This document shows positions 1,223 to 26,407 of a stretch of 32,000 nucleotides of DNA, piece after piece. Source of the DNA: Raphidiopsis brookii D9 (GTDB lineage: Bacteria; Cyanobacteriota; Cyanobacteriia; Cyanobacteriales; Nostocaceae); assembly GCA_000175855.1 (NCBI GenBank), contig ACYB01000040.1, positions 1-32,000 on the forward strand. The letters run 5' to 3'. The notes under the pieces are model-generated. The model had not been told where the DNA came from and made no database searches. It saw only the letters and a list, made by a program, of their open reading frames with translations. Every line of letters begins with the position of its first letter. Position 1 is the first letter of the stretch. The translations under genes and the position numbers were made by a program.

Positions 1223-1822
1223 TTATCTTATTGTTAGGATAAAACAGATCCGCACTTGGTTTACCTTGGTGAAGGGTGGTTTACCCGCTGCACTCCATTC
1301 CCTATGCTGTATTTGACTATGTGCTTCCCGACCATCAGAATTATAAATATCTGCTTGGATGGGTATTCGCATTAGTTGTCTATCTAAACGAGAAGTTAAA
1401 TCTCCGGTAATTTCTTCCTCTATACCCAGGGGGATATGATGGGGGTGAATCATGGGGATCCAAAAAGATGCGTTTTCACTGGTTGTAGGTGAATTCTGAG
1501 CTAAATATTCTAATTTTTGCCAAAGATAGCGAATTACTATGGCTAATAAGGCTAATAAGCGCAATGCTCCCCTGGTCCTTTGGAAATTAGGAATGGATGC
1601 TATCTTCTTAGTCAGTAGATTAAATAGTTCTGGGTGAAATGGATAGCTCTGAGCACAACTACTATCCTTACATCCACTGGGTAGAACTAAACGACTCTTT
1701 TTATAAACTTCCATATATTCCCCTGCTGCATTGGAACATATACTACTAAACATTCTTTGCTTGACTATATTGTATATCTCTTCAGGTGTAAAAAACCGGT
1801 CCTGTTCTGTGACTGCAATCAT
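1223..1822 (-). pseudogene. Isolated internal fragment of a DUF499-type (BrxC/PglY-like) ATPase gene
   Basis: The 199-aa ORF carries SYPFHPELFNLLTKKIASIPNFQRTRGALRLLA, which I recognise as the central conserved block of ~1000-aa DUF499 ATPases. There is no P-loop N-terminal part and no C-terminal half. Flanks (1046-1222, 1823-1988) are AT-rich and non-coding. Confidence 0.5.
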
Positions 1823-3223: not shown

Positions 3224-4966
3224 ATGAATTATAGAACTACTCAAACCACTCATCAAACTACTCAATTAGTGAAAACTGATGTACTTGTAATTGGTGGTGG
3301 TACCGCAGGAACAATGGCAGGAATTAAAGCAAAGCAGGTAAACCCAGATGCTGACATTTTAATTTTAGAAAAAGCAAATATTCGCCGCAGCGGTGCAATT
3401 GCTATGGGTATGGACGGGGTGAATACAGCAGTTATTCCCGGAAACTCCACCCCAGAACAATATGTCCGTGAGGTAACTATTGCTAATGATGGTATTTTGC
3501 ACCAAAAAGCAGTTTATCAAACTGCAAAACTAGGCTATGAAACTATTAAGGAATTAGAAAGTTGGGGGGTGAAATTTCAGAAAGATCCCCACGGTAATTA
3601 TGATGTCAAACAAGTACATCGCGTCGGCAAATATGTTTTACCAATGCCAGAGGGCAAAGATTTAAAAACAATTCTCACTCGTCAGGTTAAGCGTCACCAG
3701 GTGAAAGTAATCAACCGGGTTATGGCAACTAGAATATTAGTGGAAGATGGTAAAGCAATTGGTGCAGTTGGATTTGATGTACGCAGTGGAGATTTTGTAG
3801 TTATTCAAGCCAAGGCTGTTGTCCTTTGTACAGGTGCTTGTGGAAGATTAGGGTTACCAGCTTCTGGTTATCTTTATGGGACTTATGAAAATCCCACCAA
3901 TGCTGGAGATGGTTACTCTATGGCTTATCATGCAGGAGCAGAATTAACTAACATTGAATGCTTCCAAATTAACCCACTAATTAAGGATTACAATGGCCCA
4001 GCATGTGCCTATGTAGCAGGACCCTATGGAGCATATACTGCTAATAGTCAAGGAAACCGCTTCATTAATTGTGATTACTGGAGTGGTCAAATGATGTTAG
4101 AGATTTGGAGGGAATTAAACTCTGGGAAAGGTCCAATTCAAATGAAAATGACCCATTTAGATGAGGATACAATTTCTGAAATTGAAAGCATTTTGTGGGC
4201 TAACGAGCGTCCAAGTAGAGGTAGGTTTCATCAAGGCAGAGGAGAAAATTATCGCACTCATGGTGTGGAGATGAATATTTCCGAAATTGGCTTATGTAGT
4301 GGACATAGTGCATCCGGTGTTTGGGTGAATGAAAAAGCGGAAACTACAGTTCCTGGACTTTATGCAGCTGGAGACATGGCCAGTGTTCCACATAATTATA
4401 TGATTGGCGCATTTGTTTTCGGAAGATTGGCTGGAGAAAATGCTATGGAGTACATTCAGAATTTAGAAACCGTAGAACATATAAAACCAGATCCCGATCT
4501 TTTAGAAACTGAAAAAAACCGGATTTATTCACCATTAAATCAACCAAATGGCATTCCCCATACCCAAGTTGAATATAAGTTGCGCCGGCTGATTAACGAT
4601 TACCTACAACCACCAAAATCTGGCAAAAAAATGGAAATTGGGCTAAATCATTTTATTCGTTACCATGAAACACTATCGGAAATGGGAGCACGAGATCCTC
4701 ACGAATTGATGCGCTGTATGGAGGTATATTTTATTCGTGATTGTGCAGAAATGGCAGCACGAGCATCTTTATATCGTCAAGAGAGTCGTTGGGGACTATA
4801 TCATTACCGGTTAGATTATCCCGATCAAAATGATCTTGAATGGCTATGTCATGTTAATTTGAGGAAAACTGAAGGGGGAGAAATGATTTTATTCAAACGT
4901 GCAATTGAACCTTATGTGGTATCTGTTGATTTGTCCAACGAACTTTATGATGTGGCTGTAAAATAG
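3224..4966 (+). CDS. AprA-like FAD flavoprotein (adenylylsulfate reductase alpha-like; FrdA/SdhA superfamily)
   Basis: 580 aa, starting 11 nt after the ssuA stop. N-terminal dinucleotide fold DVLVIGGGTAGTMAG. ILEKANIRRSGAIAMGMDGVNTAV resembles the AprA block ...EKA.IERSGAVAQGLSAINT. Also PGLYAAGDMA and C-terminal RQESRWGLYHYRLDYP. Confidence 0.75.
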   Translation: MNYRTTQTTHQTTQLVKTDVLVIGGGTAGTMAGIKAKQVNPDADILILEKANIRRSGAIAMGMDGVNTAVIPGNSTPEQYVREVTIANDGILHQKAVYQTAKLGYETIKELESWGVKFQKDPHGNYDVKQVHRVGKYVLPMPEGKDLKTILTRQVKRHQVKVINRVMATRILVEDGKAIGAVGFDVRSGDFVVIQAKAVVLCTGACGRLGLPASGYLYGTYENPTNAGDGYSMAYHAGAELTNIECFQINPLIKDYNGPACAYVAGPYGAYTANSQGNRFINCDYWSGQMMLEIWRELNSGKGPIQMKMTHLDEDTISEIESILWANERPSRGRFHQGRGENYRTHGVEMNISEIGLCSGHSASGVWVNEKAETTVPGLYAAGDMASVPHNYMIGAFVFGRLAGENAMEYIQNLETVEHIKPDPDLLETEKNRIYSPLNQPNGIPHTQVEYKLRRLINDYLQPPKSGKKMEIGLNHFIRYHETLSEMGARDPHELMRCMEVYFIRDCAEMAARASLYRQESRWGLYHYRLDYPDQNDLEWLCHVNLRKTEGGEMILFKRAIEPYVVSVDLSNELYDVAVK

Positions 4967-5016
4967 CAGTGTGGTTTCACAGTAAAATAATTTCACTACG
5001 GAGTAATGATAAACCT

Positions 5017-5244
5017 ATGACCTTAATTAATCAAAGAGTAGATGTCCCAGTAATTGTGGATGAATCCAAGTGTCTGGAAAAATGCGTGGCCTGTATTGAG
5101 GTTTGTCCTTTAGATGTGCTGGCTAAAAATCCAGAGACTGGCAAAGCTTACATGAAGTATGATGAATGTTGGTTCTGTCTACCCTGTGAAAAGGAGTGTC
5201 CAACCAATGCTATTACAGTACAAATTCCTTTTTTACTACGGTAG
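5017..5244 (+). CDS. Small 2x[4Fe-4S] ferredoxin, AprB-like
   Basis: The track ORF begins at GTG 4969. ATG 5017 has a GGAG 13-16 nt upstream and gives 75 aa. Cluster motifs are CLEKCVACIEVCP and DECWFCLPCEKECP; the latter closely resembles the AprB motif ECWECYSCVK.CP. Confidence 0.75.
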   Translation: MTLINQRVDVPVIVDESKCLEKCVACIEVCPLDVLAKNPETGKAYMKYDECWFCLPCEKECPTNAITVQIPFLLR

Positions 5245-5253
5245 AGACTCAAA

Positions 5254-6276
5254 ATGTCTACGGATTCTAATTACCAGGTGAATCAGTGGTTGGAGATGTT
5301 GCGATCGCCTGAAGTGGGCGATCGTCTAGTAGCGGTAAAGTCCTTACAGCATCTGGGGGAAGATCTAGCTATAGAAGGTTTAATAACTGCTTTGAAAGAT
5401 GAAAGCACCGCCGTGCAAAAAATTGCAGTATCTGCACTTTGGGAACTGGGTAATCCTCAAGCGGTTCCAGCTTTACTCGAACATCTTGGTGATTGGGATC
5501 CAGAGGTTAGAATCGAAGCTCTATCAGCTTTGGGTGAATTAATAAGTTCCCATCACTTATCGTTGTTGTTGGACGCATTAGGAAAAGAAAATGTTAATCT
5601 TCAGCTTAACATTCTGATTTTGTTGCGTAAGATCCACGATATAGGATCCCTAGATGCTGTATTATCCTTCTTCAATTCTCAACACCCAGAATTGCGAGAG
5701 GCTGCTGTGACTACTTTGCGCTATTTAAATCAAGTGCAAATATGTCCAAAAGCGTTGTCACTACTCAATGACGCTGACAACAACGTGCGACGAGCAACAG
5801 CCATAACTTTAGGATATTTAAAGGATGGAAAAATTCCTGGGTTACTCAGTCAATCAATCAGCCATGATTCCGACTGGCAAGTCCGAAAAAACGCAGCCAT
5901 ATCCCTAGTCAATCATGCTAACTCAGTGGCAGTCTCCACCCTAAAAAATGGCATAACAGATGAAAATTGGCAAGTGCGAAAATCGATCATTCAACTGTTA
6001 CAAAAAGCTCCCCAAATAGAATTATTGCCTTTATTAATTGAGAGTTTAAGGAGTGATCAGTATTCTGATGTCAGAAAAGAAGCAGCTGTAGCACTTAGTC
6101 ACCTAACAATTGGTCATCCAAGTAGTCTTGAAGCTCTGGATGCTCTAAGGACCGGATTAAATGACGAAGACACAGAAGTGCAAATTTGTTGCCAAAAGGC
6201 AATAGAGAAAATTGAATCCAATGTTAAACAACGGTCTACAGCATCTAAACCAGATGTGTCCACCGTTGATGGGTAA
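5254..6276 (+). CDS. HEAT-repeat protein (PBS-lyase/E-Z type HEAT repeats, ~10 repeats)
   Basis: 340 aa, starting 9 nt after the ferredoxin stop. Recurring D..VR..A..AL units: DPEVRIEALSALGEL, HPELREAAVTTLRYL, DNNVRRATAITLGYL, DWQVRKNAAISLVNH, NWQVRKSIIQLLQKA, YSDVRKEAAVALSHL. Confidence 0.8.
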   Translation: MSTDSNYQVNQWLEMLRSPEVGDRLVAVKSLQHLGEDLAIEGLITALKDESTAVQKIAVSALWELGNPQAVPALLEHLGDWDPEVRIEALSALGELISSHHLSLLLDALGKENVNLQLNILILLRKIHDIGSLDAVLSFFNSQHPELREAAVTTLRYLNQVQICPKALSLLNDADNNVRRATAITLGYLKDGKIPGLLSQSISHDSDWQVRKNAAISLVNHANSVAVSTLKNGITDENWQVRKSIIQLLQKAPQIELLPLLIESLRSDQYSDVRKEAAVALSHLTIGHPSSLEALDALRTGLNDEDTEVQICCQKAIEKIESNVKQRSTASKPDVSTVDG

Positions 6277-7042
6277 AACGAAGAACAGCATCTAAAAAGT
6301 AACCAATTAGTCCAATGATCACAATTACTGCTGCCAACTCCGAATATGCCAAGCGATCGCGGGTATCGAGGATAAAATAGCCAAGTCCTGCATTTACTCC
6401 TAGCATTTCTGCAGGTACTAAAACGATCCAAATCACCCCCATAGCAAGGCGAATCCCAGTCAGCAAGTGAGGAATAATGGCAGGGATTATCACCTGACTA
6501 ATTGTTTCCCACTTTGTTGCACATAGACTTTTGGATAGTAGCAACCACTGAGTATCAACGGCAGTGACCCCTGCTGAAGTATTGAGAATTACAGCCCAAA
6601 TAGCAGAAATGCTTAGTAAAAAGTAAACGGGTAAATCCCCAATACCCAAAACCATAACTGCTATGGGCATCCAAGAAAGAGGCGAAATCATACGCACTAA
6701 CTGGAATAAAACGGAGGTTGCCAGATCTAAGGATCGATACATTCCTAAAAAGATACCCATAGGAACGCCTAAACTAATTGCTATTAGTAAACCTACTAAC
6801 ACCCGGCGTAGACTGGCAAATATATGGGGAAAAATGGAGTGGCTATTAAATAATTGAAATAAGGAAACAATGCACCGCTCCAAGGAAAAGTCAACTAGCA
6901 TTAGATCCCGGTGCCATAGGGGAGTAGTGCATATCCACCAAATACTCAAACCGACCATTAGTCCGGATAGGGGTAGGGGAATTTTTTTAACAAGGTGTAG
7001 TTGCAAGGCAATAAGAAACCGGGTGACGATTTTGATGGTCAT
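6245..7042 (-). CDS. ABC transporter permease (NitT/TauT family, SsuC/TauC-like)
   Basis: 265 aa and multi-pass hydrophobic. Conserved loop [44 protein letters not shown]. Its ATG overlaps the upstream stop (ATGA at 7039-7042). Confidence 0.85.
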
Positions 7043-7620
7043 TCAACTTTTCCAACTACTGTGGCTTCAGGAATTTCAATTAACTTTCCAGTCTTTACAT
7101 CATAAATGTAACCATAAATGACAATGTCTTTAGGAACTAGGGGATGATATCTTATCCTTCTAACATCTTCATAAACACTTTTGGCTTGATTGCTTATTGT
7201 TAACCAATTAATGAAATCCCCCTCTTGTGAACCTGGTCCGATACCCACATCATGCCAACCTCTCTCATCTAACTGGGCAGTTTCTAGACTGTTTGCCAAT
7301 AGTTTTCGAATAATTTCATCTGTGAAGGTTTCCATTCCACAATCCGTATGGTGAATAATAAACCATTCACGAGTACCTAAAAGCTTGTAAGAAATCACCA
7401 AAGAGCGAATGGCATCATCACTAGCTCTACCACCAGCATTCCGAATAACATGGGCATCTCCTTCAACCAGACCAGCAAATTTTGCCGGATCAAGGCGAGC
7501 ATCCATGCATGTCAAAATGGCAAATTTACGACCAGGAGGTAGGGGTAAATTTCCCTTATCCCCAAAGATTTCAGTATACTTTTGATTGGCATGAAGAACT
7601 TCTTGAACTAACTGACTCAT
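7039..7620 (-). CDS. Beta-class carbonic anhydrase (Rv1284/COS-hydrolase-like clade)
   Basis: I place the start at ATG 7620 (MSQLVQEVL...), with GAGG upstream; the track ORF extends to 7665. Zinc-site motifs are intact: [11 protein letters not shown] and [38 protein letters not shown] resembles the mycobacterial Rv1284 type. Confidence 0.85.
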
Positions 7621-7671
7621 AAAAAACCTCAATTTTTGACGAAAAGTCGCATCGAATAATATCAAAATAAT

Positions 7672-8922
7672 TTAGATAGCAAAGGTTTCAGAACGCAAAA
7701 GTTCTTTCGGTAATCCAAAAACCTCTGGACCTCCAATCTGTTGTAAAGCAGATTTAACAAAGGAATCATCCACTAAATCTGCAGCCACCTGCTTTGGCTC
7801 TAAGGTTTGCAAAAAGTTTGTTTCCCCTTCTACTTGAGTTTCTCTAAGTAATTCAACTAATTTCTCCGTGTAAGAGGGAAAAGGATAAGGTTGAAAGTCA
7901 ATTCTATTTATTCCCCAATCAGGATGGGTAATTGCTTGTTGATAAAACTTTGAGTCATAGTAGCCAAGGGATCTTTGTAAGGCACCTAGGGGATGGGGTG
8001 TGTACTTGCCTCCATCCTTAGAAAGAATTTTGGCTACTTCTAAGCGATTATTTCTTGCCCAGGATTGTGCTTTAACTATTGCATTAACTACTTTTTGAGT
8101 CCATTCTCGTCTTTGGGTAATATCTTCTTCATGAACAAATACTACACAGCAGGCATGATCTTTCCAAACATCTCCAGTAAACCGCAGAACCTTACCAGTT
8201 TTCAAATTTTCAGCCACTGCATTAAATGGCTCTGCGACTATATATCCTCCAATACTTTTATTAGCTAATGCCGAAACCATATCGGGAGGAGGTAATACAA
8301 CTAAGTTAACCTCGTTACTACCAATAGGAGCATCCTGGGCCTTACGAACCACGCTTAGTCCTTGCTGTTTGAGGATTTGTTGTAAGACTACGTTGTGGAT
8401 GGAATACCAAAACGGAACAGCTATTGTCCTTCCACCTAAATTTTTGGCACTTTCAATCTCTGGTGCCACGGTTAAAGCTGAACCATTGGTATGATTCCAG
8501 GCAATAACTTTTGCCGGAAACTTACGTCCATACCTAATCCAAATGGTAACCGGCATCAGGACATGAATTACATTGATTTGACGCGCTAAAAAAGCTTCCA
8601 CAATTTGTGACCAAGATCGAAATAGCCGTGGCTGTTCGCTAGTTAGTCCTTCCGCTTCATACAGTTTACGAGAGTGTGCAACTAATAGGGGGGCAGCATC
8701 AGTAATAGGTAAGTAACCTACTTTTACGGGCTGATCGTCTGAAAAAACTGGTTTAGTCGTAGATTGTTGAGTATTATTTGGTGGGAAGGACTTTTGCTCA
8801 CAGCCGCCCATACCTATTGTTGCTGTTAATGAAGTGGTGAAAAAACTAGTAAGCTTGAGAAAGTCTCTTCTGTTCATACCGCAGCACAGACAAGTGTAAG
8901 GATTAAAAAATGGTTTATTCAT
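7672..8922 (-). CDS. NrtA/CmpA/CynA-type ABC transporter substrate-binding protein with twin-arginine signal
   Basis: 416 aa. NRRDFLKL Tat motif followed by ...TIGMGGC (possible lipobox). NrtA-type core KVGYLPITDAAPLLVAHSRKLYEAEGL and IAVPFWYSIHNVVLQQILKQQGL. Confidence 0.8.
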   Translation of the reverse strand: MNKPFFNPYTCLCCGMNRRDFLKLTSFFTTSLTATIGMGGCEQKSFPPNNTQQSTTKPVFSDDQPVKVGYLPITDAAPLLVAHSRKLYEAEGLTSEQPRLFRSWSQIVEAFLARQINVIHVLMPVTIWIRYGRKFPAKVIAWNHTNGSALTVAPEIESAKNLGGRTIAVPFWYSIHNVVLQQILKQQGLSVVRKAQDAPIGSNEVNLVVLPPPDMVSALANKSIGGYIVAEPFNAVAENLKTGKVLRFTGDVWKDHACCVVFVHEEDITQRREWTQKVVNAIVKAQSWARNNRLEVAKILSKDGGKYTPHPLGALQRSLGYYDSKFYQQAITHPDWGINRIDFQPYPFPSYTEKLVELLRETQVEGETNFLQTLEPKQVAADLVDDSFVKSALQQIGGPEVFGLPKELLRSETFAI

Positions 8923-8992
8923 ACACTAATTTCAGATGAGTTGAATGTTAATCAATTAGAATTTAGAAGTGACAACACTTAGGAATGACAGG

Positions 8993-9817
8993 TTATTTTC
9001 CCCAATCCATTAAACTTGAAAGTTCCTCGAAAATAGTTAGTCGCATTTCGGCTAAGGTGTGTGCTTCCTTAAAACGGGGTTTCGGTTGCATAATCCGCCA
9101 TTCTCGATCAATTGCCCCCGGATAACGACTCATTAAAAATATGCGATCGCCTAGCAGAAGGGCTTCGTCAATATCATGAGTCACGAGCAAGATTGTACTT
9201 TGATGCTGCTCAATTACCTCTAATAAAAGCTTCTGCATTTCTAGTCGGTTAATGGCATCAAGTCCGCTAAAAGGCTCATCCAGCAACAATAGTTTGGGTT
9301 GACGAGCAAGCGCACGTCCTAAAGCTACTCGCTGTGCCATACCTCCAGATAACTGATGAGGATACGCTTGTTCAAATTTATCTAGGTTAACACTAGTAAT
9401 TGCTAAGTTAATACGCGATTCTAGTTCAGCTTTGGATAAAGAGTCCATCCGGGTGAATTGTAATCCAAAACCAATATTTTGCCTAACACTCAACCAGGGA
9501 AGTAATGCCGCCTGCTGAAAGACTAAACCAATTTGGGGGTGCGGGGAAGTCAGGGGACGACCCTCTAAATAAATTTGTCCTTTATTGGCAGATTTTAAAC
9601 CGGCGATCGCCATTAGCAGTGAAGACTTTCCACATCCACTGGCACCTAAAAGACATACCACTTCTCGATGACAAACATCTAAATTGATATTGGCAAAAGC
9701 AGTATAAGTCCCTCGACGAGTCTTATAATTCATCTGTAAACCTTCTACTTTCAGCAGAGGCTCACTTCCTACAGAGGTTAGTCTTGACCTAGTGACAGTT
9801 GTATGGTAATCCATCAC
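8993..9817 (-). CDS. ABC transporter ATP-binding protein (NitT/TauT family)
   Basis: Walker A GASGCGKSS, signature LSGGMAQRV, Walker B LLLLDEPFSGLD, H-loop VTHD. The start overlaps the upstream gene end by 29 nt. Confidence 0.9.
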   Translation of the reverse strand: MMDYHTTVTRSRLTSVGSEPLLKVEGLQMNYKTRRGTYTAFANINLDVCHREVVCLLGASGCGKSSLLMAIAGLKSANKGQIYLEGRPLTSPHPQIGLVFQQAALLPWLSVRQNIGFGLQFTRMDSLSKAELESRINLAITSVNLDKFEQAYPHQLSGGMAQRVALGRALARQPKLLLLDEPFSGLDAINRLEMQKLLLEVIEQHQSTILLVTHDIDEALLLGDRIFLMSRYPGAIDREWRIMQPKPRFKEAHTLAEMRLTIFEELSSLMDWGK

Positions 9818-10889
9818 TTTTTTCCTTAACCAATCTGTGTCGATACAATTCAGTTTCTAATTGAACCAAGCTAGGGGTTAACACAGGTAAAAATGCCACC
9901 TCTCTTAGTCGTCGAGCTGTGCCGCTCGGTTTCAAATATCCAGTACCTCCTTTGGCCTCTAATTCCATTTGAACCACTTCAACTGCTAAACGGGTTAATT
10001 TAACTCGTACTTCAAATAGCTGACGCATTTGTGTCAAAGTAAAGGCTGATAAGTTGCTCAAATAGGAAATATGATTTTCCAGATTTGACAATGTTGCTGT
10101 ACTAGCTCCTAATCGTGAGGCTAACACCTCCCGGTTATTGGTATTTATACTTTGCCTAGTTTCTTTCAGAGATCTCCGTGCCATACCCAGAGCTAATCCA
10201 CATTGCATTAGCAAAAATGCGGGACGAATTTTGGGTAAGAATTCTGCCCCATTGTCACTAATAATCCAAGAATGGCAAAGCTGCACATTATTGAATTTCA
10301 GGCTACTTGTCCAGGATGCCTGTAACCCAAGTAGCTGTAGATCCTCTCCCCGATTTAATCCAGAGATGTCAGCAGGAACTGCAATTACCATGGACTTCCC
10401 ACAGTCGGTTTGCCCTGCAACTGCAATCACAAATTTTTCCGGACGTAGATTGGAGGCCCAGGGCAAAAAACCGTTGATAGTCACATTTTCGTTATCGATC
10501 TCGACTTGTAGCCGCAGTTTTTCAATCCCTGCCAGATATTTCATCGCATTAGACAGACCAGTAGCACCTGATAACTCTCCTTTGAGTACCATGGGCAAAA
10601 TTTCTGACTGGAGGTAATGGTTACCACTAGCAGATAGATATTCCATAAATGCTCTTTGGCACCAAAACACAAAACCACTGGTAAGACATTGTTCAGAAAC
10701 ACTGGCGATCGCCTCTACCACATCTGATAAACCACCCCCGGAACCACCTAAAGAAGAAGATAGTCCCAATGCTAAGTAACCCGATCGTGCCAGGGTAATC
10801 AGAGACTTATCAATACTGAATCCATTTAATCCATCATTAAAGTATCCGGCACATTCAGATAATTGCAGTGTTGAATCTTGGAGGAGCAT
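9789..10889 (-). CDS. Acyl-CoA dehydrogenase-fold protein, probably a flavin-dependent monooxygenase of the MsuC/SfnB/DszC type
   Basis: Start placed at ATG 10889 (MLLQDSTLQ...), 10 nt after the upstream stop; the track ORF reaches 10934. Length and layout match ACADs, including ELSGATGLSNAMKY and a C-terminal four-helix region. It lacks the YEGT/catalytic-Glu region of true ACADs and has GGTGYLKPSGTARRLREVAF instead. Confidence 0.7.
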   Translation of the reverse strand: MLLQDSTLQLSECAGYFNDGLNGFSIDKSLITLARSGYLALGLSSSLGGSGGGLSDVVEAIASVSEQCLTSGFVFWCQRAFMEYLSASGNHYLQSEILPMVLKGELSGATGLSNAMKYLAGIEKLRLQVEIDNENVTINGFLPWASNLRPEKFVIAVAGQTDCGKSMVIAVPADISGLNRGEDLQLLGLQASWTSSLKFNNVQLCHSWIISDNGAEFLPKIRPAFLLMQCGLALGMARRSLKETRQSINTNNREVLASRLGASTATLSNLENHISYLSNLSAFTLTQMRQLFEVRVKLTRLAVEVVQMELEAKGGTGYLKPSGTARRLREVAFLPVLTPSLVQLETELYRHRLVKEKSDGLPYNCH

Positions 10890-10899
10890 AAAACTTTCC

Positions 10900-11427
10900 T
10901 CAGTGTAGATTACGGATGGAAGTAAGAGCATCAATGGGCGCGCCTAGGATTTCCCGGGCCTGCTTAACAGTAGACTCATCAGGGCTTTCATATAAACATA
11001 AGCACTTACTTAAGTCTTCACAAACATAAGTACGTTCAAATTTTACCTGTGGCACCTGAGCGTAGAGAGGCGACTTTTCTGCTTTTCGCTGCAAGTAACC
11101 CTCCATGGTCAACCCAGCTGGTAAATTCCACTCTACTAAGTAGTTGGCATTGTGTTTGCGTGCCTTCAAAGTTGTTAAATCCTGTCCCAGGAGACGTACT
11201 GGCTTAACTGTAGTAGTAGCTAACCCACCTGCTTCAAAACTTTTTTGGGCGATCGCCGGTTCAAGGGCATCAATCACCACAAACAGTCGTTGCAAATCTT
11301 CTCCTACCTGGGCCTCGATTAATTCTGCACCAAAGTTGATTGCAGCAGTAGCAATGACATCCAGGGACTGTCCGATCTTTTCCGCTTGCAGTTCCGTAAT
11401 AAATCCCTCAATTAAGTACAGTGACAT
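10900..11427 (-). CDS. DUF4242-like protein (SCO4226 nickel-binding-protein family), possibly two tandem domains
   Basis: 175 aa. The second half, YLVEWNLPAGLTMEGY...VKFERTYVCEDLSKCLCLYESPDESTVKQAREILGAPIDAL, fits the DUF4242 pattern as I remember it. The first half is weaker. Confidence 0.45.
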   Translation of the reverse strand: MSLYLIEGFITELQAEKIGQSLDVIATAAINFGAELIEAQVGEDLQRLFVVIDALEPAIAQKSFEAGGLATTTVKPVRLLGQDLTTLKARKHNANYLVEWNLPAGLTMEGYLQRKAEKSPLYAQVPQVKFERTYVCEDLSKCLCLYESPDESTVKQAREILGAPIDALTSIRNLH

Positions 11428-11698
11428 TTCATCTAAACCTCACAGAAGTCAGTGAACCACCAGTTAAAGCCTGGTGAAGAAACAATAGTTACTACACTAC
11501 ATTTATACTACTGTTACTTGGTAGGTTTATTGTAGTTATATAAATCATACAGGGCAAAGATAAAAAAAGCAACAAAGTTAGATTTTTTAAACAAAAAAAT
11601 AGGCTTATTTAGATAACAAGAATTTCATTTCCAAATACGCCTATATTTTTTAATGAGGATGGTAAAGAGTAAAAATAGACCCTAAAGTTGAAGGAGGC

Positions 11699-12301
11699 TC
11701 AGGAAACCACAGCAGCCACATTTTGGAAGTAGACTGGCTCATTTCCCAATCGCCACTTGATGTTACAACCAATGCTAGGCTTCTGGTTATGACTCACCTG
11801 GTGACCAGCTAAAATAGCTGTAATGGCAGCTCGTAAATCTTTGCCAGTTACGGGGATACCATTTTGAGGACGACTATCATCTAACTGTCCACGGTAGATA
11901 AGCTTCCGTTCAGCATCAAACAAAAAGAAATCAGGGGTACAAGCAGCAAAAAAGTCCTTTGCGGTTTTTTGTGTTTCATCAAAAAGCACAGGATAAGCCA
12001 GATCTAATTCCTGGGCAAAAGCCTTCAAAAATTCTGGTGCATCATCGGGATGACTACTAATATCATTAGCACTAATAGCCAGGATTCCCAAATTACTTTC
12101 TAGATAATCTTTTCCTAACTGGGCCAATTCAAACTTAATGTGTTGCACAAAGGGACAGTGGCGACTCAAGAATATGACTAGTAAAGCTCTTTTATCGGCA
12201 AAGTCAGCCAGGGAAAATGACTTACCAGAAACCACATCTGGTAAGTAAAAATTCGGAGCTAAGGTGCCCAAAGGTAACATTGTCGAAGCAGTTTTGACCA
12301 T
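11699..12301 (-). CDS. Thioredoxin-fold, peroxiredoxin-like protein (PRX_like1 type, single active-site Cys)
   Basis: Start placed at ATG 12301 (MVKTASTMLPLG...), which removes the overlap with tauD; the track ORF reaches 12388. AhpC/TSA-like LAPNFYLPDV...ALLVIFLSRHCPFVQH. Confidence 0.65.
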   Translation of the reverse strand: MVKTASTMLPLGTLAPNFYLPDVVSGKSFSLADFADKRALLVIFLSRHCPFVQHIKFELAQLGKDYLESNLGILAISANDISSHPDDAPEFLKAFAQELDLAYPVLFDETQKTAKDFFAACTPDFFLFDAERKLIYRGQLDDSRPQNGIPVTGKDLRAAITAILAGHQVSHNQKPSIGCNIKWRLGNEPVYFQNVAAVVS

Positions 12302-12344: not shown

Positions 12345-13262
12345 TCAAACACCCACAGGTACACGCTTATTATAATAAATAGAGGCATCCCCTTTCACGG
12401 CTTGACTTTTTTGACCATTAACACTAACGGGTACATCACCTACAATAGTAACTCTCTGAACCCGACGAGGCTGATTACCATAATCTGCTATGGCATAGTG
12501 TTGGGTAGCGCGATTATCCCAAAATGCCACATCACCCACTTTCCAACGCCAACGGACTGTATTTTCTGGGCGCGTTACATAGGACTGCAACAATTGAATA
12601 ATATGATCTGACTCCGTTGTAGATAGTCCCCTAATCTGTCTGACGAAACCACCGATAAATAATCCTTTTTCCCCAGACTCAGGATGAACACGTACTACTG
12701 GATGTAAAGTTTCATACACAGTTGAGGTAAAAACTTCTCGATAAGCCTTGAGATCCTCGGAAAGATTGACTGCAGCTTCGGCATAGTCATAGGCATTGCT
12801 GTGAACTGCCCATAGCTCATCAGCAAGTTGACGCAGGTGTTCTGGTAAGTCGCGATATGCTGTTACGGAATTGCCCCAAATAGTATCACCACCATAAGCC
12901 GGAATTTCTAAGGCCCGCAAAATAGAACCCAGAGGAGGACGGTCCACAAATGTGACATCAGTATGCCAATTGTTTGCACGAGCAGCTGTTTTCCCATAGT
13001 CCAAATCTAATATTTCTGGGTGACCTGTTAAAGATGGAACTGTAGGATGAGCTGTTGTAATTTCTCCAAATCGACGGGCAAAATCGATTTGATTCTCAGC
13101 ACTAAGATGTTGATTACGGAAAAAGATTACTTTATATTCAACAAGGGCACGACGAATTTCACTAATAATTGCATCACTGAGATTTTCTTGCAAATCAATT
13201 TCTAAGATCTTGGCACCGATACGTCCAGCAATTGGCTTAATCTTTAAGTATTGATAAGTCAT
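12345..13262 (-). CDS. tauD: TauD/TfdA-family Fe(II)/2-oxoglutarate dioxygenase (taurine/alkyl-sulfonate or sulfate-ester dioxygenase)
   Basis: 305 aa. Facial-triad region NNWHTDVTFVDRPPLGSILRALEIPAYGGDTIW, distal WAVHS, and FWDNRATQHYA. Substrate cannot be assigned from sequence. Confidence 0.9.
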   Translation of the reverse strand: MTYQYLKIKPIAGRIGAKILEIDLQENLSDAIISEIRRALVEYKVIFFRNQHLSAENQIDFARRFGEITTAHPTVPSLTGHPEILDLDYGKTAARANNWHTDVTFVDRPPLGSILRALEIPAYGGDTIWGNSVTAYRDLPEHLRQLADELWAVHSNAYDYAEAAVNLSEDLKAYREVFTSTVYETLHPVVRVHPESGEKGLFIGGFVRQIRGLSTTESDHIIQLLQSYVTRPENTVRWRWKVGDVAFWDNRATQHYAIADYGNQPRRVQRVTIVGDVPVSVNGQKSQAVKGDASIYYNKRVPVGV

Positions 13263-16904: not shown

Positions 16905-18713
16905 ATGCAACAAGGTCATAATTCCGATGCAGAAGATTCTTCCCCACATCATGAGAATAACAAGAAGGGGAAACGCCTTAATTCTAACCTGGGTATAAAT
17001 AGACGTTCATTTATTGGTCGTGGCGGTCTTGCCGGAGGCTTTCTCATCGGTATAACAGGTGCATCCTTGATTGAGAACGGCAAAACAAGTGTTGTTCAAG
17101 CTCAGAACACGGCAATTAAGGGTAAATACCCCAAGTTATTAGAGAAAACCTACAATATACGTGTATCAGCAGCGAAAGCAAATCGAGAAACTCCTGTTCC
17201 CCCCCAACCAACAAATGGTGATGAGGATCTCTATCCTAACAAAATAGGTTCTGATTCAAGAGGTTTGCCCCATAATAATTTGGGTGAAGTCGACCTCAAG
17301 GCTTATGAAACCTTAACCAAAGCGATAAGAACTCATAATCATGATGATTTTGAAAATGTTATTTTGGGTGGTACAAGGAAATTGGTTAATGCTCAGGCTC
17401 CTCTAGCTGTCAGTTTAGAAGGGACTAGCCCGTTACAAGTATCAGTTCCACCACCACCTAACTTAACAAGTCCAGAAAGAGCTCATGAAGCAATTGAGCT
17501 TTATTGGCAAGCTTTACTACGAGATATCCCTTTCCACAAACTGCAAAATAACACTGATGATCCTCTGGTTTTAGCTGCGGTTGAGGAACTAAATCAACTC
17601 TCTAATTTTAAAGGTCCCAAGGAAAATGGACGTGTGACCCCCCAAAGTCTATTTCGTGGTAGTGTTACCTATGTTGACAAAAATGATCGGTCTGGAAAGA
17701 CTTCAAAACACGTTACCCCACCGGGAGTACTTATTGGACCTCATATCTCCCAATTTGCACTGCTAAATATACCTTGGGGAGTCCAATATGTTCCACCTGT
17801 AATTCGCACCACTGTGTCGGGCAATGACTTTCTGACTGATTATGAGGAATGGTTAAATGTACAGAATGGTGGTACCCCAAAACAGTCCACTTTTGATCCG
17901 ATCCGCCGTTACATTTCTACTATTCGTGACCTGTCAGAGTTTTCCCATACCCCCGGCGCTTCATTTTATGGTGCCTCTTTAATTCTTGCTACCACCAGAA
18001 ATGCTAAAGATCCCCTGAGTGGAGGGATTGGTGCACCCTTTAATCCGGGCAATCCATTCGTCAAATCAAAAACTCAACAGGGTGGTAATGGTTCTTTTGC
18101 TGTTGGACACCTACAAGCTTTATTAAGCTTGAGTACATCCCGTGCCATCAGGGTAGCATATTGGCAAAAATATTATGTACACCGCATACTGCGTCCTGAA
18201 GCATATAGTGGGTTAGTCCACCACAATATTCTCAATAGAACTCAATATCCAGTTCATAGAGCTATCTTGAATTCTAAAGCTCTGGCTAGGAGTTTTAGCA
18301 AGTTTGGTTCTTATTTGTTACCCCATGGATATCCTGAAGGATCACCTATTCATTCATCTTATGTTGGTGGTGCAGCTGCGATCGCAGGTGCAAATGTCAC
18401 CATTCTCAAGGCATATTTTGATGAGAATTTTGTCATTCCCAATCCCGTAATTCCCGATCCAAATGACCCAACTAAAGTTATTCCCTATAACGGAGATCCC
18501 TTAACCATAGGTGGTGAGTTGAATAAGCTAGCTACAAATTATGCTCTCGGTCGCGGACATGGTGGTATTCACTGGCGTACGGACGGTTCTGCTGGACTGG
18601 CTTTAGGAGAAGAAGTTGCTATTGCCATTCTTAAGGATGAGTCCTTGGGTTACAATGAGAAGTTTGCGGGCTTTACCTTCACCAAATTTGATGGCACTAA
18701 GGTTACGGTTTAA
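16905..18713 (+). CDS. Tat-exported vanadium-haloperoxidase/PAP2-superfamily-like protein
   Basis: 602 aa. Tat motif NRRSFIGRGGLAG. PAP2/VHPO motif 1 WQKYYVHRILRPE (K-x7-RP) and motif 3 GRGHGGIHWRTD (R-x5-H-x3-D). Motif 2 reads HSSYVGGAAA where HPSYPSGHA is expected. Confidence 0.7.
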   Translation: MQQGHNSDAEDSSPHHENNKKGKRLNSNLGINRRSFIGRGGLAGGFLIGITGASLIENGKTSVVQAQNTAIKGKYPKLLEKTYNIRVSAAKANRETPVPPQPTNGDEDLYPNKIGSDSRGLPHNNLGEVDLKAYETLTKAIRTHNHDDFENVILGGTRKLVNAQAPLAVSLEGTSPLQVSVPPPPNLTSPERAHEAIELYWQALLRDIPFHKLQNNTDDPLVLAAVEELNQLSNFKGPKENGRVTPQSLFRGSVTYVDKNDRSGKTSKHVTPPGVLIGPHISQFALLNIPWGVQYVPPVIRTTVSGNDFLTDYEEWLNVQNGGTPKQSTFDPIRRYISTIRDLSEFSHTPGASFYGASLILATTRNAKDPLSGGIGAPFNPGNPFVKSKTQQGGNGSFAVGHLQALLSLSTSRAIRVAYWQKYYVHRILRPEAYSGLVHHNILNRTQYPVHRAILNSKALARSFSKFGSYLLPHGYPEGSPIHSSYVGGAAAIAGANVTILKAYFDENFVIPNPVIPDPNDPTKVIPYNGDPLTIGGELNKLATNYALGRGHGGIHWRTDGSAGLALGEEVAIAILKDESLGYNEKFAGFTFTKFDGTKVTV

Positions 18714-18806
18714 TAGTTGACTTCAAATTCAACTTGATCAATTAGGAATATGGGGAATATACTTTTCTCATATTCCGGCAATTTAATAAACCATAGTAAA
18801 CATATA

Positions 18807-19634
18807 ATGAATATGACTAGTGCTAATCAATTACTAAATCATCGGTATGGGAATGGCAATTTTAATTCGGATGTACCTTGGAATGATACTTTGGAGACCT
18901 TGCTATCCCATCGGTCAATTCGTGGGTATCTAGGAAATAGTTTGCCCTCGGGCACCTTAGAAATTTTAATTGCTGCAGCTCAATCAGCATCCACATCCTC
19001 TAATCTCCAAACCTGGAGCGTTATAGCAGTGGAAAATACGGACCGTAAACAACAATTGTCCCAACTGGCTAATAATCAACCCCACATTCGTCAGTGTCCT
19101 TTATTTCTAGTCTGGTTAGCGGATTTAGCTAGACTAGCACATATCGCTGAAGAGCGGGGACTACCCCATGAAGGATTGGACTATCTGGAAATGTTCCTTA
19201 TGGCTGCTCTGGATACCGCCTTGGCAGCACAAAATGCTGTTGTAGCAGCAGAATCCTTAGGATTAGGAACCGTTTACATTGGTGCATTAAGAAATAACCC
19301 TCTGGAAGTGGCACGTTTACTCAATTTGCCTTCCCATGTTGTGGCTGTATTTGGTTTGTGTGTTGGCTATGCTGATCCAGTTATAAATGTGGATATAAAA
19401 CCTCGTTTGCCTCAATCTGTGGTCTTACACAGAGAAAACTATCAACTACAAACCCAAAATGAAGGAATTGCTCGGTATAATCAAGTGATGGAAGAATTTT
19501 ATAGTTCACAAAATATGAATGTTCCGGGTGATTGGTCAGAACATTCTAGCAAAAGAGTTGCCAATGCCAATTCTTTAACCGGTAGACAAAACCTACGGGA
19601 AATTCTCACAAAACTTGGATTTCAACTGCGCTGA
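18807..19634 (+). CDS. NfsA/Frp-family NADPH-dependent flavin oxidoreductase (nitroreductase fold)
   Basis: Start placed at ATG 18807 (MNMTSANQ...); the track ORF starts at 18750. It aligns by eye along its length with E. coli NfsA: LLSHRSIRGY, AAQSASTSSNLQ, AAQNAVVAAESLGLGTVYIGALRNN, LFGLCVGY..D.KPRLP. Confidence 0.85.
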   Translation: MNMTSANQLLNHRYGNGNFNSDVPWNDTLETLLSHRSIRGYLGNSLPSGTLEILIAAAQSASTSSNLQTWSVIAVENTDRKQQLSQLANNQPHIRQCPLFLVWLADLARLAHIAEERGLPHEGLDYLEMFLMAALDTALAAQNAVVAAESLGLGTVYIGALRNNPLEVARLLNLPSHVVAVFGLCVGYADPVINVDIKPRLPQSVVLHRENYQLQTQNEGIARYNQVMEEFYSSQNMNVPGDWSEHSSKRVANANSLTGRQNLREILTKLGFQLR

Positions 19635-20678: not shown

Positions 20679-20999
20679 TTAATTTATTATTAGATACGTA
20701 GAGTCCTGGTTAGAAGTGTTCCTCTGCAACTCTGTCCAACCAATATTTTTTCTGTAACTGCCTAAAAGTGCTGCTTCTTCCAGAAATTTTTCATCTATTT
20801 GTGCCAAAGGATCCACCTCTGGTGCAACGTATAGTGCATCTACTGGACAGTATAACTCACACATGAAACAAGTTTGACAGTCATTTTGTCTAGCTATTAT
20901 TGGAGGTCCATTTACTACTTTATCAAACACATTGGTTGGACAAACTTTGACACAAATATTACATTTAATACACCTGGATTCACTGACTAGTTCAATCAT
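20679..20999 (-). CDS. 2x[4Fe-4S] dicluster ferredoxin
   Basis: 106 aa, with CIKCNICVKVCP and CQTCFMCELYCP. Confidence 0.8.
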   Translation of the reverse strand: MIELVSESRCIKCNICVKVCPTNVFDKVVNGPPIIARQNDCQTCFMCELYCPVDALYVAPEVDPLAQIDEKFLEEAALLGSYRKNIGWTELQRNTSNQDSTYLIIN

Positions 21000-21108
21000 G
21001 ATTTGTTAGTAGGTTTTGACAATAGATAGGATCATTAGTAGAATCATTATTTGAGGTGGAGCAGAAATAACTCCACCAGAAGCTTGCTTATACTGAATTC
21101 AAACCATA

Positions 21109-22743
21109 TTAGAGAGAAGTCTTATCCAGATGTGTCCTCATGGGTATGGTTATGCTTTTGACCCAAACTTGGTCCAAACCTCCACTAATTAAGTGGTGTT
21201 GTTGAGCTGCATCAAGTTCTGGATAGTCCTGGCGTCTGTGCATCCCACGGGTTTCTCTTCTTTCTAAAGCACTACTATACATCCATCTGGCAGTGGCCAC
21301 CATAGCCGCAGCTTCCCTTGTTCGTAGAAGATTATTGTTACTTGCTACTTCACCTTGACGAATTGCCTTCCATAGAGAATCTAATTTCCCCAGTGATGTG
21401 GTCAATCCCTCTTCATTACGGAAATAGTTGCGATTATATGGAAAGACCTCTGCTTGAGTAGCTTTGACAATTTCTTCACTTTCAACCTGATTGCTACTAC
21501 CGGATGTTAATCCGGCCCCCTCTAAAAATTCCACATATCTCTCGTTGGCTGCTATGCCCATATCCTGAGAGTATTTTGCAGCAAATTTCCCCGCCCAGTA
21601 TCCCGAAGACAATGCCCAGGCAGCATTATGACTACCACCACCAGTAAAACCACCACAAATTAATTCTCTTGTTGCAGCATCCCCAGCTGCATACAGTCCA
21701 GGGACAGAGGTAGCACAGGTGTAGTCTGTAATTCTAATGCCACCCGTTCCCCTTACGGTACCTTCCAAACGCAAAGTAACAGGAAACCTTTGGGTAAACG
21801 GATCAATTCCTAGGCGATCAAAAGGTAGAAAGAAGTTTGGTTGAGATAATCGCATTGTTGACCGCATTTGTTCTGAGGCCTTATCAATAATCGCATAAAC
21901 CGGTTGAGTTAATAGGGTTTGAGCAATGACAGAACGACCTTTCTGAGATCCAGCACCAGGTATGAGCGTGCCATCTTCGTAAGTAAAACTGGCCCAGTTA
22001 TAGAATAGAGTTTTGGTGACTGAAGAAAACGCGGGAGCAATGGCGTAGGCGTTGGAAAATTCCATCCCCGACATTTCCGCTCCCATCTCCGCTGCCATTA
22101 AGTATCCATCCCCAGTTAACACATTACAACCCAGAGCTTTACTTAAAAATGCACAACCACCCGTAGCAATTACTACTGCATGCGATCGCACAATCCAATT
22201 CTCTCCAGTTTGACGATTAATTCCCCTGGAACCAGCTACTGCGCCCTCTTTATCTACCAACAATTGCAAAGCAGGACTATGGTCTAAAATTTTCACTCCT
22301 GCTTGTTTAACTTTTTTTCTCATGAGACGCATATACTCAGGTCCTTGAAGACTGCGTCTGTAGGATTTACCTTCCTCATCTGTGGGAAAAGGATAGCCCC
22401 AATCAGCTAATTGGTTAACGTTTGTATAGGTCTGATCTAACACACGCTCCATCCAATCTCTTAAGGACAAAAATCCCCCCAGAGATTCTCTAGAAGCCAT
22501 TGCTGCTTCTCTGCTTTCAGGTTCCGGTGGCACATACCACACACCGTTACCAGCCGCTGCTGCACAACCACTAGTACCACAATAGCCTTTATCTACTAAC
22601 ACTACTTTAGCTCCGGCATTAGCAGCGCTCCATGCTGCCCAAGCGCCAGCTGGTCCACCACCAATTACTAATACATCAGCTACTAAAGTTTCGTGACTGT
22701 TCTTCTTGGAGGAAACCGAAAAAGAAAACTTTTCCTGAGTCAT
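21109..22743 (-). CDS. FAD-dependent oxidoreductase, fumarate reductase/succinate dehydrogenase flavoprotein superfamily
   Basis: 544 aa. DVLVIGGGPAGAWAAWSAANAGAKVVLVDKG, PGLYAAGDAA, and C-terminal ERRETRGMHRRQDYPELD. Confidence 0.8.
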   Translation of the reverse strand: MTQEKFSFSVSSKKNSHETLVADVLVIGGGPAGAWAAWSAANAGAKVVLVDKGYCGTSGCAAAAGNGVWYVPPEPESREAAMASRESLGGFLSLRDWMERVLDQTYTNVNQLADWGYPFPTDEEGKSYRRSLQGPEYMRLMRKKVKQAGVKILDHSPALQLLVDKEGAVAGSRGINRQTGENWIVRSHAVVIATGGCAFLSKALGCNVLTGDGYLMAAEMGAEMSGMEFSNAYAIAPAFSSVTKTLFYNWASFTYEDGTLIPGAGSQKGRSVIAQTLLTQPVYAIIDKASEQMRSTMRLSQPNFFLPFDRLGIDPFTQRFPVTLRLEGTVRGTGGIRITDYTCATSVPGLYAAGDAATRELICGGFTGGGSHNAAWALSSGYWAGKFAAKYSQDMGIAANERYVEFLEGAGLTSGSSNQVESEEIVKATQAEVFPYNRNYFRNEEGLTTSLGKLDSLWKAIRQGEVASNNNLLRTREAAAMVATARWMYSSALERRETRGMHRRQDYPELDAAQQHHLISGGLDQVWVKSITIPMRTHLDKTSL

Positions 22744-23865: not shown

Positions 23866-23969
23866 GTTACTAAATTATCCTCGTTACAAGAAAATAACTA
23901 AATTATCTGCAAATTCCACAAGCAGCTTTAAAATGCTTTTGTAGTTCATAACAAAAATCTAATAAACGA

Positions 23970-25190: not shown

Positions 25191-25304
25191 TTTTACCTCG
25201 CTTTTTCCGCAATTCCAGAAAATACAAATGGTTTGGATTATTAATCCCCGGTCAAAAATCCCTGGTTTTTAACCTGGGGAAGCTAAAATATTCGACCGTA
25301 TATT

Positions 25305-25340
25305 AAAAGTACTGTGAATTTATCGGATAACAGTACTTTT
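25305..25340. promoter_or_regulatory. Perfect 10-bp inverted repeat (aaaagtactg N16 cagtactttt) in the GST/GST divergent region
   Basis: Arms at 25305-25314 and 25331-25340. A related half-site, gataaacagtactt, occurs at 25662-25675, ~50 nt before the 25727 start. Confidence 0.3.
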
Positions 25341-25726
25341 CAAGATGAGGTAACCATACTACAGAAGTTTGGGATAAATCAAGTATTGGATATTACAAAA
25401 TTCCCATAACCTGATTTTTTTTGCAAGTAGCTTTGATAGAAACACTCTTTTGAGATTTGTTATAGCTTCTTAGCTATTAATTACATCCCATGTGGGTAAA
25501 TGGCGATCGCTTGATTATTCTTGATTATTTAGGTTCCTAAGAGGAAAAAACAGACCTTACCATGATTTGGGACCTACAAAGATAAAAAATCAATGTTGAC
25601 AAAAATACTTGCTTTTTTGCCTGGACTATGAAACAATCATCTAATATACGGTAAACCGACAGATAAACAGTACTTATTGATTACCAGGTAACGAAGTTTC
25701 AATCGCAAGAGTAAGGAAATAATTTG

Positions 25727-26398: not shown

Positions 26399-26407
26399 AG
26401 AACTTGT

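Follow-up and report, generated by a model that had tools for sequence, protein, structure and literature searches.

A putative sulfur-starvation importer in Raphidiopsis brookii D9 with an accessory clade D beta-carbonic anhydrase that may act as a carbonyl sulfide hydrolase

We examined a 32,000-nucleotide stretch of the genome of Raphidiopsis brookii D9 (assembly GCA_000175855.1, contig ACYB01000040.1, positions 1 to 32,000; hereafter ‘the window’), and in particular a cluster of eight co-directional genes that encode a TauD-family dioxygenase, a redoxin, a DUF4242 protein, a protein with the fold of the acyl-CoA dehydrogenases (ACADs), the ATPase, substrate-binding protein (SBP) and permease of an ABC importer, and a beta-carbonic anhydrase (CA). 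Our leading explanation, which we hold tentatively, is that the cluster comprises a sulfur-starvation importer for a zinc-coordinating, probably reduced-sulfur ligand, to which a clade D carbonyl sulfide (COS) hydrolase has been added as an accessory. A first-pass annotation of the same sequence had described six of these genes, and had proposed that a CA placed between the binding protein and the permease of an importer points to an imported anion that yields COS, carbon disulfide (CS2) or CO2 on breakdown. The open reading frames (ORFs) and family scans agree with its account of the six minus-strand genes, their order, families, gaps and overlaps (Table 1); its interpretation, taken overall, is partly supported.

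A genome scan that took the ACAD-fold family as its seed recovered 80 loci, onto which the proteins of the window were mapped. Across these loci, which come from five phyla and have variable flanks, five genes keep an invariant order: a small protein (DUF4242 or CMD), the ACAD-fold protein, the ATPase, the SBP and the permease. Because the order of this five-gene core is kept in at least 80 genomes, the arrangement of the cluster is not a product of chance. The module is present in the cyanobacteria Microcystis, Pantanalinema, Limnothrix, Alkalinema, Pannus, Leptolyngbyaceae and Synechococcus elongatus and, beyond that phylum, in Armatimonadota, Nitrospira, Afipia, Bradyrhizobium and about 50 Pseudomonas genomes. 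Its small protein is a DUF4242 protein in cyanobacteria, Armatimonadota and Nitrospira; in proteobacterial modules the same place is taken by a CMD/AhpD-like protein bearing the motif HGCxFCVAGH (a CxxC motif), which looks like the displacement of one cysteine-motif protein by another. The individual parts of the cluster belong to known families, and their combination is not described in the searchable literature, where we found nothing relevant to an ACAD/DUF4242 module and, as the first-pass annotation had supposed, no characterized system of this composition.

Family scans of the window identified, together with TauD and the redoxin, an FGE and a sulfatase, another three binding proteins like SsuA, two proteins resembling GSTs, an OprB porin and two AprA-like flavoproteins with ferredoxins, in keeping with the earlier description of the region as a sulfur-scavenging island. 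A near absence of cysteine and methionine is typical of sulfur-starvation proteins; the 305-residue TauD contains no cysteine and a single methionine, one island binding protein no cysteine and two methionines, and a 602-residue island protein no cysteine and one methionine. We infer that the cluster is under sulfur-starvation regulation. In other genomes the flanks of the module vary everywhere, yet are repeatedly sulfur-related. In Nitrospira sp. KM1 (locus L171, 5112-19071), genes for AhpC-TSA, DsrE and TusA flank it on one side, and genes for a 607-residue class V aminotransferase (cysteine-desulfurase-like) and an SrpI-like encapsulin shell on the other; the encapsulin would represent a sulfur-starvation nanocompartment. 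A two-domain rhodanese adjoins the module in Pantanalinema and Limnothrix (L012 14054-15148; L030 8044-9039), both of which are without the CA, SsuD-like or luciferase-like monooxygenases lie beside it in Alkalinema, Pannus and Bradyrhizobium, and a cysteine synthase and a gamma-glutamyl transpeptidase are found near it in S. elongatus. The flanks of the Microcystis module were also inspected and are not sulfur-related. A TauD-redoxin pair lies directly upstream of the CA or DUF4242 gene in several loci (L008, L009, L173-L177), and homologues of the 200-residue redoxin always follow TauD.

The binding protein carries a Tat motif (NRRDFLK) and a lipobox-like GGC, and is 100% identical to an NCBI protein from Cylindrospermopsis raciborskii. 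A CxCC motif directly precedes the twin arginines (window 8878-8922, minus strand) and is conserved in cyanobacterial orthologues, with Cys11 and Cys14 at least 90% conserved in 40 homologues; this implies that translation uses the long start, which gives 416 residues, and that a cysteine cluster lies in the n-region of the Tat signal. Its structural model (predicted local distance difference test score, pLDDT, 84) gave two leading Foldseek matches of equal strength, NrtA (2G29) and 3UN6 (both ∼1.7e-20), with CmpA next and SsuA and TauA clearly lower, and its scores against the SsuA_fam and TauA profiles fall well under their cutoffs (88.9 against 163.5, and 32.6 against 490, respectively). 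Since the model matches 2G29 and 3UN6 equally, and above SsuA and TauA, the earlier assignment to the NrtA/CmpA fold and not to the SsuA type holds. The part of that assignment which extended to a nitrate-, bicarbonate- or cyanate-type pocket does not: of the five nitrate ligands of NrtA that were compared, the protein retains Trp102 and probably His196, and it has Ser, Ala and Cys at the positions of Gln155, Gly240 and Lys269, the last of them cationic. We regard a transporter for nitrate, bicarbonate or cyanate as ruled out by these replaced ligand residues.

In place of that pocket the protein has a motif of the 3UN6 type. 3UN6 is a zinc-bound SBP from Staphylococcus aureus and the best sequence match of the binding protein in the Protein Data Bank (PDB); the two proteins have in common His144 (in AWNH), His176 (in YSIH) and the adjacent Cys258 and Cys259 (in HACC). 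The residues of these three motifs are invariant in 18 orthologues, and His144, His176, His256, Cys258 and Cys259 are invariant in 40 homologues. The binding protein would thus be expected to coordinate zinc through the cysteine pair and two histidines, and its ligand is probably a small, zinc-coordinating, reduced or sulfane-level sulfur species. Export by the Tat pathway would fit secretion of a folded, metal-loaded protein. SBPs resembling 3UN6 are also conserved transporter partners of the clade B nickel carbon monoxide dehydrogenases (Ni-CODHs) (PMC6344411, PMC13592312); in a CODH-linked member, zinc was modeled with a pair of cysteines and either one histidine or two, the site was likened to those of beta-CAs, and the ligand was called unknown (PMC13592312). 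The link between the module and these orphan CODH-associated transporters appears to be new. As a hint at the composition of the 3UN6 operon, expression tables place a DUF4242 protein beside ‘ssuB’ at adjacent S. aureus locus tags.

The ACAD-fold protein was modeled by AlphaFold2 with a pLDDT of 95 and has the three-domain fold of that superfamily; Foldseek aligned it to IVD and SCAD at a template modeling (TM) score of 0.85 with at most 20% identity, and to TdsC at a TM score of 0.76. The catalytic position of the MCAD Glu376 type is occupied by a nearly invariant threonine (Thr338, in VLTPS), that of the IVD Glu254 type by alanine, and GLSNAMKxLxGIE stands in place of the ACAD signature around ‘E-x2-G-S-D’. 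With both catalytic glutamate positions lost, a true acyl-CoA dehydrogenase is ruled out. Membership of the SfnB, MsuC or DszC families is ruled out on scores: no curated family cutoff is reached (NCBIfam SfnB 40.7 bits against 430.9), and the family profile gives E-values of 1.7e-5 to MsuC, 1.7e-4 to DszC and 4e-18 to IVD. The likeness to these sulfur oxygenases that had been suggested earlier is thus no closer than that to ordinary ACADs. None of the eight genes of the cluster encodes a flavin reductase; at 18750-19634, in another part of the island, there is a gene of the nitroreductase family. Both sequence and model are consistent with a non-canonical enzyme of the flavoprotein fold. Its small neighbor, the DUF4242 protein, has an invariant cysteine motif, YVCEDLSKCLC, in an alignment of 13 orthologues. 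The related SCO4226 binds nickel weakly (Kd 10 µM) through surface residues that are conserved only in Streptomyces and include no cysteine, so that neither the ‘nickel’ label nor a reading of DUF4242 as a nickel chaperone can be transferred from it.

The CA has a complete active site, with zinc ligands Cys38, His91 and Cys94 and the Asp40/Arg42 dyad lying within CMDAR and HHTDCG, as had been noted at first pass. Its closest PDB matches (5ZTP, 2e-44; CafC, 6e-40; Rv1284, 1e-36; the COS hydrolase (COSase) 3VQJ, 5e-30; the CS2 hydrolase 3TEN, 9e-28; with 3LAS also among the top matches) belong to clade D, which agrees with its earlier placement in an Rv1284-like clade. The protein is ∼52% identical to both CafC and 5ZTP and retains the equivalents of CafC Leu25 and Leu78. 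Relative to CafC, 5ZTP and 3LAS it contains an insertion of 15-22 residues (about residues 105-135), common to all members of its family. Its alignment to 3VQJ spans only residues 8-111; with regard to the loop of the Thiobacillus thioparus enzyme (Gly150-Pro158), that alignment ends at residue 111 and the CA has its own insertion, at about residues 105-135. The fungal COSases are without this tunnel-narrowing loop (PMC12035519), and clade D as a whole is a mixture of true CAs (Rv1284), COSases, CS2 hydrolases and proteins whose CA activity is very low, such as the COSase-like CafC (PMC12035519). A fungal clade D COSase allows growth with COS as the only source of sulfur and enables E. coli to assimilate COS (PMC10880591).

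The CA of the window has no signal peptide. Cytosolic CA activity reportedly collapses the cyanobacterial CO2-concentrating mechanism, as Price and Badger are said to have found in 1989; a signal-less enzyme with low activity on CO2 therefore fits better. As in fungi, the protein most likely acts as a cytoplasmic clade D COS hydrolase, a predicted activity in which we place moderate confidence. A literature search found nothing relevant on CA and sulfur limitation in cyanobacteria.

In the mapping of the 80 loci the CA is absent from most modules, including those of Microcystis, S. elongatus, Limnothrix, Pantanalinema, Armatimonadota, Nitrospira and the about 50 Pseudomonas genomes. It occurs in sulfur clusters of some cyanobacteria only, in four arrangements: between SBP and permease in the window, its 99% twin (L005), Alkalinema (L023) and L091; in the order SBP-CA-TauE-permease in L010 and L011; after TauD and redoxin, and ahead of DUF4242, a sulfatase or an unknown gene, in L008, L009 and L173-L177; and divergently, upstream of the module, in Pannus (L016). 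In the second of these, seen in Leptolyngbyaceae-type loci, a membrane protein of the TauE/SafE family has been inserted along with the CA, between the genes for SBP and permease (L010 9607-10413; L011 13939-14769); L011 also has methionine-salvage genes divergently upstream of its module (7389-9349; an MtnB-like aldolase, an HAD enolase-phosphatase-like protein and an ARD dioxygenase). In C. raciborskii S07 and a Raphidiopsis genome the cluster reads TauD-redoxin-CA-DUF4242-ACAD-ATPase-SBP-permease, and the window and S07 are collinear, at 71-76% nucleotide identity, save for the position of the CA. A CA pseudogene remnant was sought in the 271-nucleotide gap at 11428-11698 of the window, and none was found. 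Because the CA of the sister strain follows TauD-redoxin, the gene is tied to the sulfur cluster as a whole and not to the SBP-permease junction.

Homologues of the CA with 72-80% identity are abundant in cyanobacteria, gammaproteobacteria and soil metagenomes, and the 193-residue family is unusually well conserved, to the same degree, in Nitrosococcus, Thiodiazotropha and Acidiferrobacterales. Stand-alone copies are found in Nitrosococcus, Nostoc C052, Thiodiazotropha and another cyanobacterium; the Thiodiazotropha gene adjoins an ATP sulfurylase gene (L004). In a rough neighbor-joining tree the CAs linked to sulfur clusters fall into two cyanobacterial groups, beside stand-alone cyanobacterial copies. 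The CA is an accessory gene outside the core, recruited into the sulfur cluster by several cyanobacterial lineages.

In the mechanism that we propose, the eight proteins of the cluster would together form a sulfur-starvation set. The Tat-exported binding protein would capture a small zinc-coordinating ligand, which the NitT/TauT-type permease and ATPase would import and the ACAD-fold flavoprotein, with its cysteine-motif partner (DUF4242 or AhpD-like), would then process. The CA would convert COS and water to H2S and CO2, with the sulfide passing straight into cysteine synthesis; its COS could come from the environment, from metabolism or from the imported compound.

Several points weigh against this explanation. 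Neither sequence nor modeled tunnels, including the tunnel-lining residues that the first-pass annotation had proposed to inspect, separate COSases from true CAs in clade D; loops, gate residues and tunnel hydrophobicity all failed to predict the activity in a 2025 study (PMC12035519). The binding of zinc is predicted from a conserved motif and one related crystal structure. The module forms the context of only 1 of 80 metagenome CA loci, and since CA homologues mostly stand alone in unrelated contexts, the family may have a general housekeeping role. Dissolved COS is very dilute in natural waters, and COS may therefore be only a minor source of sulfur. Finally, the ATGA overlap with the permease and the placement of the CA inside the transporter genes of several lineages would also fit a coupling of the enzyme to the imported substrate.

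Such a coupling, in which an imported anion (thiocyanate, thiocarbamate or a monothiocarbonate-like compound) would give rise to COS or CS2 in the cytoplasm, from which the CA would release H2S, is in essence what the first-pass annotation had proposed, and we consider it rather unlikely. In at least four lineages the CA gene does sit within those of the transporter, and the binding protein would represent a thiophilic-metal form of the fold that binds bicarbonate, nitrate or cyanate. The COSase of T. thioparus acts downstream of a thiocyanate hydrolase. Clade B Ni-CODHs are accompanied by an orphan transporter of the same type, and it is presumed that they really act on a small molecule taken up from outside (PMC13592312). 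Against this, most module-bearing genomes have no adjacent CA, which weakens the inference from the embedded gene; the absence is not decisive, because another cellular CA could substitute. The CA of the sister strain lies outside the transporter genes, neither a thiocyanate hydrolase or dehydrogenase nor a cyanase was found among the ORFs scanned in the window, and a literature search returned nothing on thiocyanate as a cyanobacterial sulfur source of this kind.

We likewise doubt that the enzyme is an ordinary beta-CA acting on CO2 and bicarbonate, whether to handle inorganic carbon for the cluster (such as CO2 released by TauD) or as a sulfur-sparing replacement for a housekeeping enzyme. 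Its catalytic site is complete, Rv1284 (to which it matches at 1e-36) is an active CA, and close homologues reside in many non-sulfur contexts. However, no enzyme of the cluster needs bicarbonate, cytosolic CA is generally held to harm the cyanobacterial CO2-concentrating mechanism, and a role in carbon metabolism leaves the repeated recruitment into sulfur clusters, in four arrangements, unexplained. The CAs of sulfur islands do contain fewer methionines (3, against a family mean of 4.4), but the difference is small, too weak to carry the idea of a sulfur-sparing isoenzyme, and the two cysteines are zinc ligands in every member.

It is quite unlikely, in our estimation, that the importer is a widespread and so far unrecognized route for reduced one-carbon sulfur or sulfane species, with the ACAD and cysteine-protein pair, CODH and CA/COSase serving as alternative or successive sulfide-releasing enzymes. 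Candidate ligands of such a route would be thiocyanate, a monothiocarbonate or COS-derived anion, hydrosulfide and polysulfide, and sulfide would be released by the ACAD-fold and cysteine-protein pair in aerobes, by CODH in anaerobes, and by CA/COSase in some cyanobacteria.

A zinc or nickel importer, in which the Cys2His2 site would bind the cation itself, DUF4242 would be a metallochaperone and the CA a client, is very unlikely. 3UN6 was crystallized with zinc, nickel import has been proposed for the CODH-linked transporters (PMC6344411), and Pfam lists DUF4242 under the name ‘nickel responsive protein SCO4226-like’. Metal import is nonetheless improbable because the permease and ATPase fall into NitT/TauT, a family of the anion type, nickel binding by SCO4226 is weak, non-conserved and cysteine-free, and the neighboring genes concern sulfur and not metal homeostasis; in addition, a 2026 study argues against nickel (PMC13592312) and the ACAD-fold flavoprotein would have no role in the import of a metal. 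That the CA found its way into the cluster by chance and is functionally unconnected with it is hardly credible, for although most members of its family stand alone, it sits beside the module or TauD-redoxin in at least four cyanobacterial genera and in four arrangements, and it stays in the same cluster when its position shifts, far above what is random for a single-copy gene.

Table 1. Genes and features of the predicted importer cluster, in window coordinates
Feature	Position	Strand	Details
Permease (ABC transporter)	6245-7042	minus	265 aa; Pfam BPD_transp_1, E = 2e-23
Beta-CA, clade D family protein	7039-7620	minus	193 aa, no signal peptide; Pro_CA 42.5 bits vs cutoff 25.7
Substrate-binding protein, NrtA/CmpA fold	7672-8922	minus	NMT1_2, E = 1e-45; Tat motif, putative Zn site
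ATPase, NitT/TauT-type ABC	8993-9817	minus	Pfam ABC_tran, E = 4e-32
ACAD-fold protein, predicted non-canonical flavoprotein	9789-10889	minus	366 aa; AlphaFold2 model and Foldseek
DUF4242 / SCO4226-like protein, first gene of the five-gene core	10900-11427	minus	175 aa; Pfam PF14026 67.7 bits vs cutoff 28.5, residues 96-170
Redoxin, AhpC/TSA family	11699-12301	minus	200 aa if start is Met30 of the ORF; Pfam AhpC-TSA 2e-16, Redoxin 4e-15
TauD-family 2-oxoglutarate dioxygenase, first co-directional cluster gene	12345-13262	minus	305 aa; Pfam TauD, E = 8e-67
ATGA overlap, CA stop/permease start	7039-7042	minus	direct sequence reading: GTTGAATGACCATC

The junctions of the cluster are tight. A 10-nucleotide gap separates the DUF4242 and ACAD-fold genes, the latter overlaps the ATPase gene by 29 nucleotides (26 with the ATG at 9814 taken as the ATPase start), and gaps of 70 and 51 nucleotides follow between ATPase and binding protein and between binding protein and CA. 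The most likely start of the CA, as read from the sequence, is the ATG at 7620, which is preceded by GAGG; an in-frame stop immediately precedes the start of the permease at 7042, which aligns with an ‘MT...’ start in a sister strain. Upstream, the operon probably extends through redoxin and TauD. Scans for promoters and terminators between 5900 and 13900 gave counts no higher than expected from shuffled sequence, so that no operon boundaries could be set from them, and an Rfam scan of the whole window matched neither a riboswitch nor another RNA family. At the level of curated families, TauD scored 281 bits against the NCBIfam taurine dioxygenase cutoff of 313; the top NCBIfam matches of the permease (SaoP, NtrB and TauC) and of the ATPase (ntrCD, TauB and SaoA) are all under cutoff as well.

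Convergent to the permease lies a plus-strand trio (3224-6276) encoding an AprA-like flavoprotein (994 bits to NCBIfam PRK08275), a small ferredoxin of the 4Fe-4S type and a protein with HEAT repeats; the 3′ ends of trio and permease overlap by 32 nucleotides. In L005 the trio likewise borders the module; in Alkalinema (L023) it is located ∼6 kb upstream of the module, and the flavoprotein and HEAT parts are fused elsewhere (PRK13800). The stretches 20679-22743 (minus strand) and 22822-27433 hold a second FAD flavoprotein, of the succinate-dehydrogenase/AprA type, with its own ferredoxin, as well as a 2-hydroxyacid dehydrogenase, an aldo-keto reductase and the two GST-like proteins, ahead of the FGE and sulfatase pair. 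The gene for the 602-residue protein (16905-18713, plus strand), which has no Pfam match, lies between those for an SsuA-like binding protein and the nitroreductase-family protein; in the S07 island (L176) a 593-residue protein with a weak VCPO_2nd match is encoded between sulfatase and OprB. A 199-residue ORF (1223-1822, minus strand) aligns to the DUF499 profile, which is 1024 residues long, over positions 183-300 only, and probably represents a fragment of a gene.

If the CA is a sulfur-controlled COS hydrolase, it would represent the first bacterial use of COS as a nutrient through a dedicated, regulated enzyme, and bloom-forming cyanobacteria would join the biological COS sink. The core module ranges from cyanobacteria to Pseudomonas and probably includes S. 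aureus, and its binding protein is of the same orphan zinc-site type that was left without a ligand by a July 2026 study of clade B CODHs (PMC13592312). The sulfur neighborhoods described above (TauD, sulfatase, rhodanese, TusA/DsrE and SrpI encapsulin) offer a testable direction for the question of the CODH-linked ligand; were the one-carbon sulfur reading true, sulfur starvation would be a physiological clue to the substrate of the clade B CODH operon and of S. aureus 3UN6. Among tractable hosts, S. elongatus and P. putida carry the module.

Among the known systems closest to the cluster is the fungal clade D COSase of Trichoderma harzianum (PMC10880591, PMC8209446, PMC12035519), a cytoplasmic enzyme of the same clade with the same Cys-His-Cys and Asp/Arg site; CafC is ∼55% identical to it, as compared with ∼52% between CafC and the CA of the window. 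The role that we propose for the CA, conversion of COS to H2S for assimilation, is identical to that of the fungal enzyme. The two differ in that the fungal gene is constitutive and solitary, whereas the CA is bacterial, lies inside a putative sulfur-starvation operon and carries the 15-22 residue insertion. The COSase of T. thioparus (3VQJ) and the CS2 hydrolase of Acidianus (3TEN) share clade and catalytic residues with it, but serve the energy metabolism of sulfur oxidizers and achieve their specificity through extra loops or oligomeric tunnels; the CS2 hydrolase, with its terminal extensions, catenane or hexadecamer assembly and long hydrophobic tunnel, is likened to the CA by its sequence match.

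The cluster as a whole resembles, in composition, the ssu, tau and msu-sfn operons (SsuABC-SsuDE, TauABCD, MsuEDC and SfnB, with a peroxiredoxin of the LsfA/AhpC type), which likewise combine a NitT/TauT importer, a flavoenzyme and a peroxiredoxin-like protein; TauD and sulfur-poor proteins add to the likeness. In contrast to these operons, its binding protein scores under the SsuA and TauA cutoffs and bears a Cys2His2 motif, its flavoenzyme has the ACAD fold and is unrelated at family level to SfnB, MsuC and DszC, and it includes a CA and no flavin reductase. With the NrtABCD, CmpABCD and CynABD transporters it shares the SBP fold including the C-terminal extension, a Tat-type signal, the lipobox and the family of permease and ATPase, but the ATPase of the cluster has no fused regulatory domain and no cyanase was found among the ORFs scanned. 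E. coli cynTSX similarly embeds a beta-CA in the operon of a small-anion pathway, although CynT belongs to another beta-CA clade, its context is nitrogen and not sulfur, and the ORFs scanned in the window include no cyanase counterpart. The 3UN6-type SBPs of the clade B Ni-CODH transporters share with the binding protein the adjacent cysteines and two histidines, a predicted lipid anchor and an enzyme presumed to act on the import. The binding protein of the window is ∼100 residues longer, with an NrtA-like C-terminal part, and it is partnered, in place of a CODH, by an ACAD-fold flavoprotein compatible with oxygen; it occurs in aerobes and phototrophs, with sulfur genes as its surroundings.

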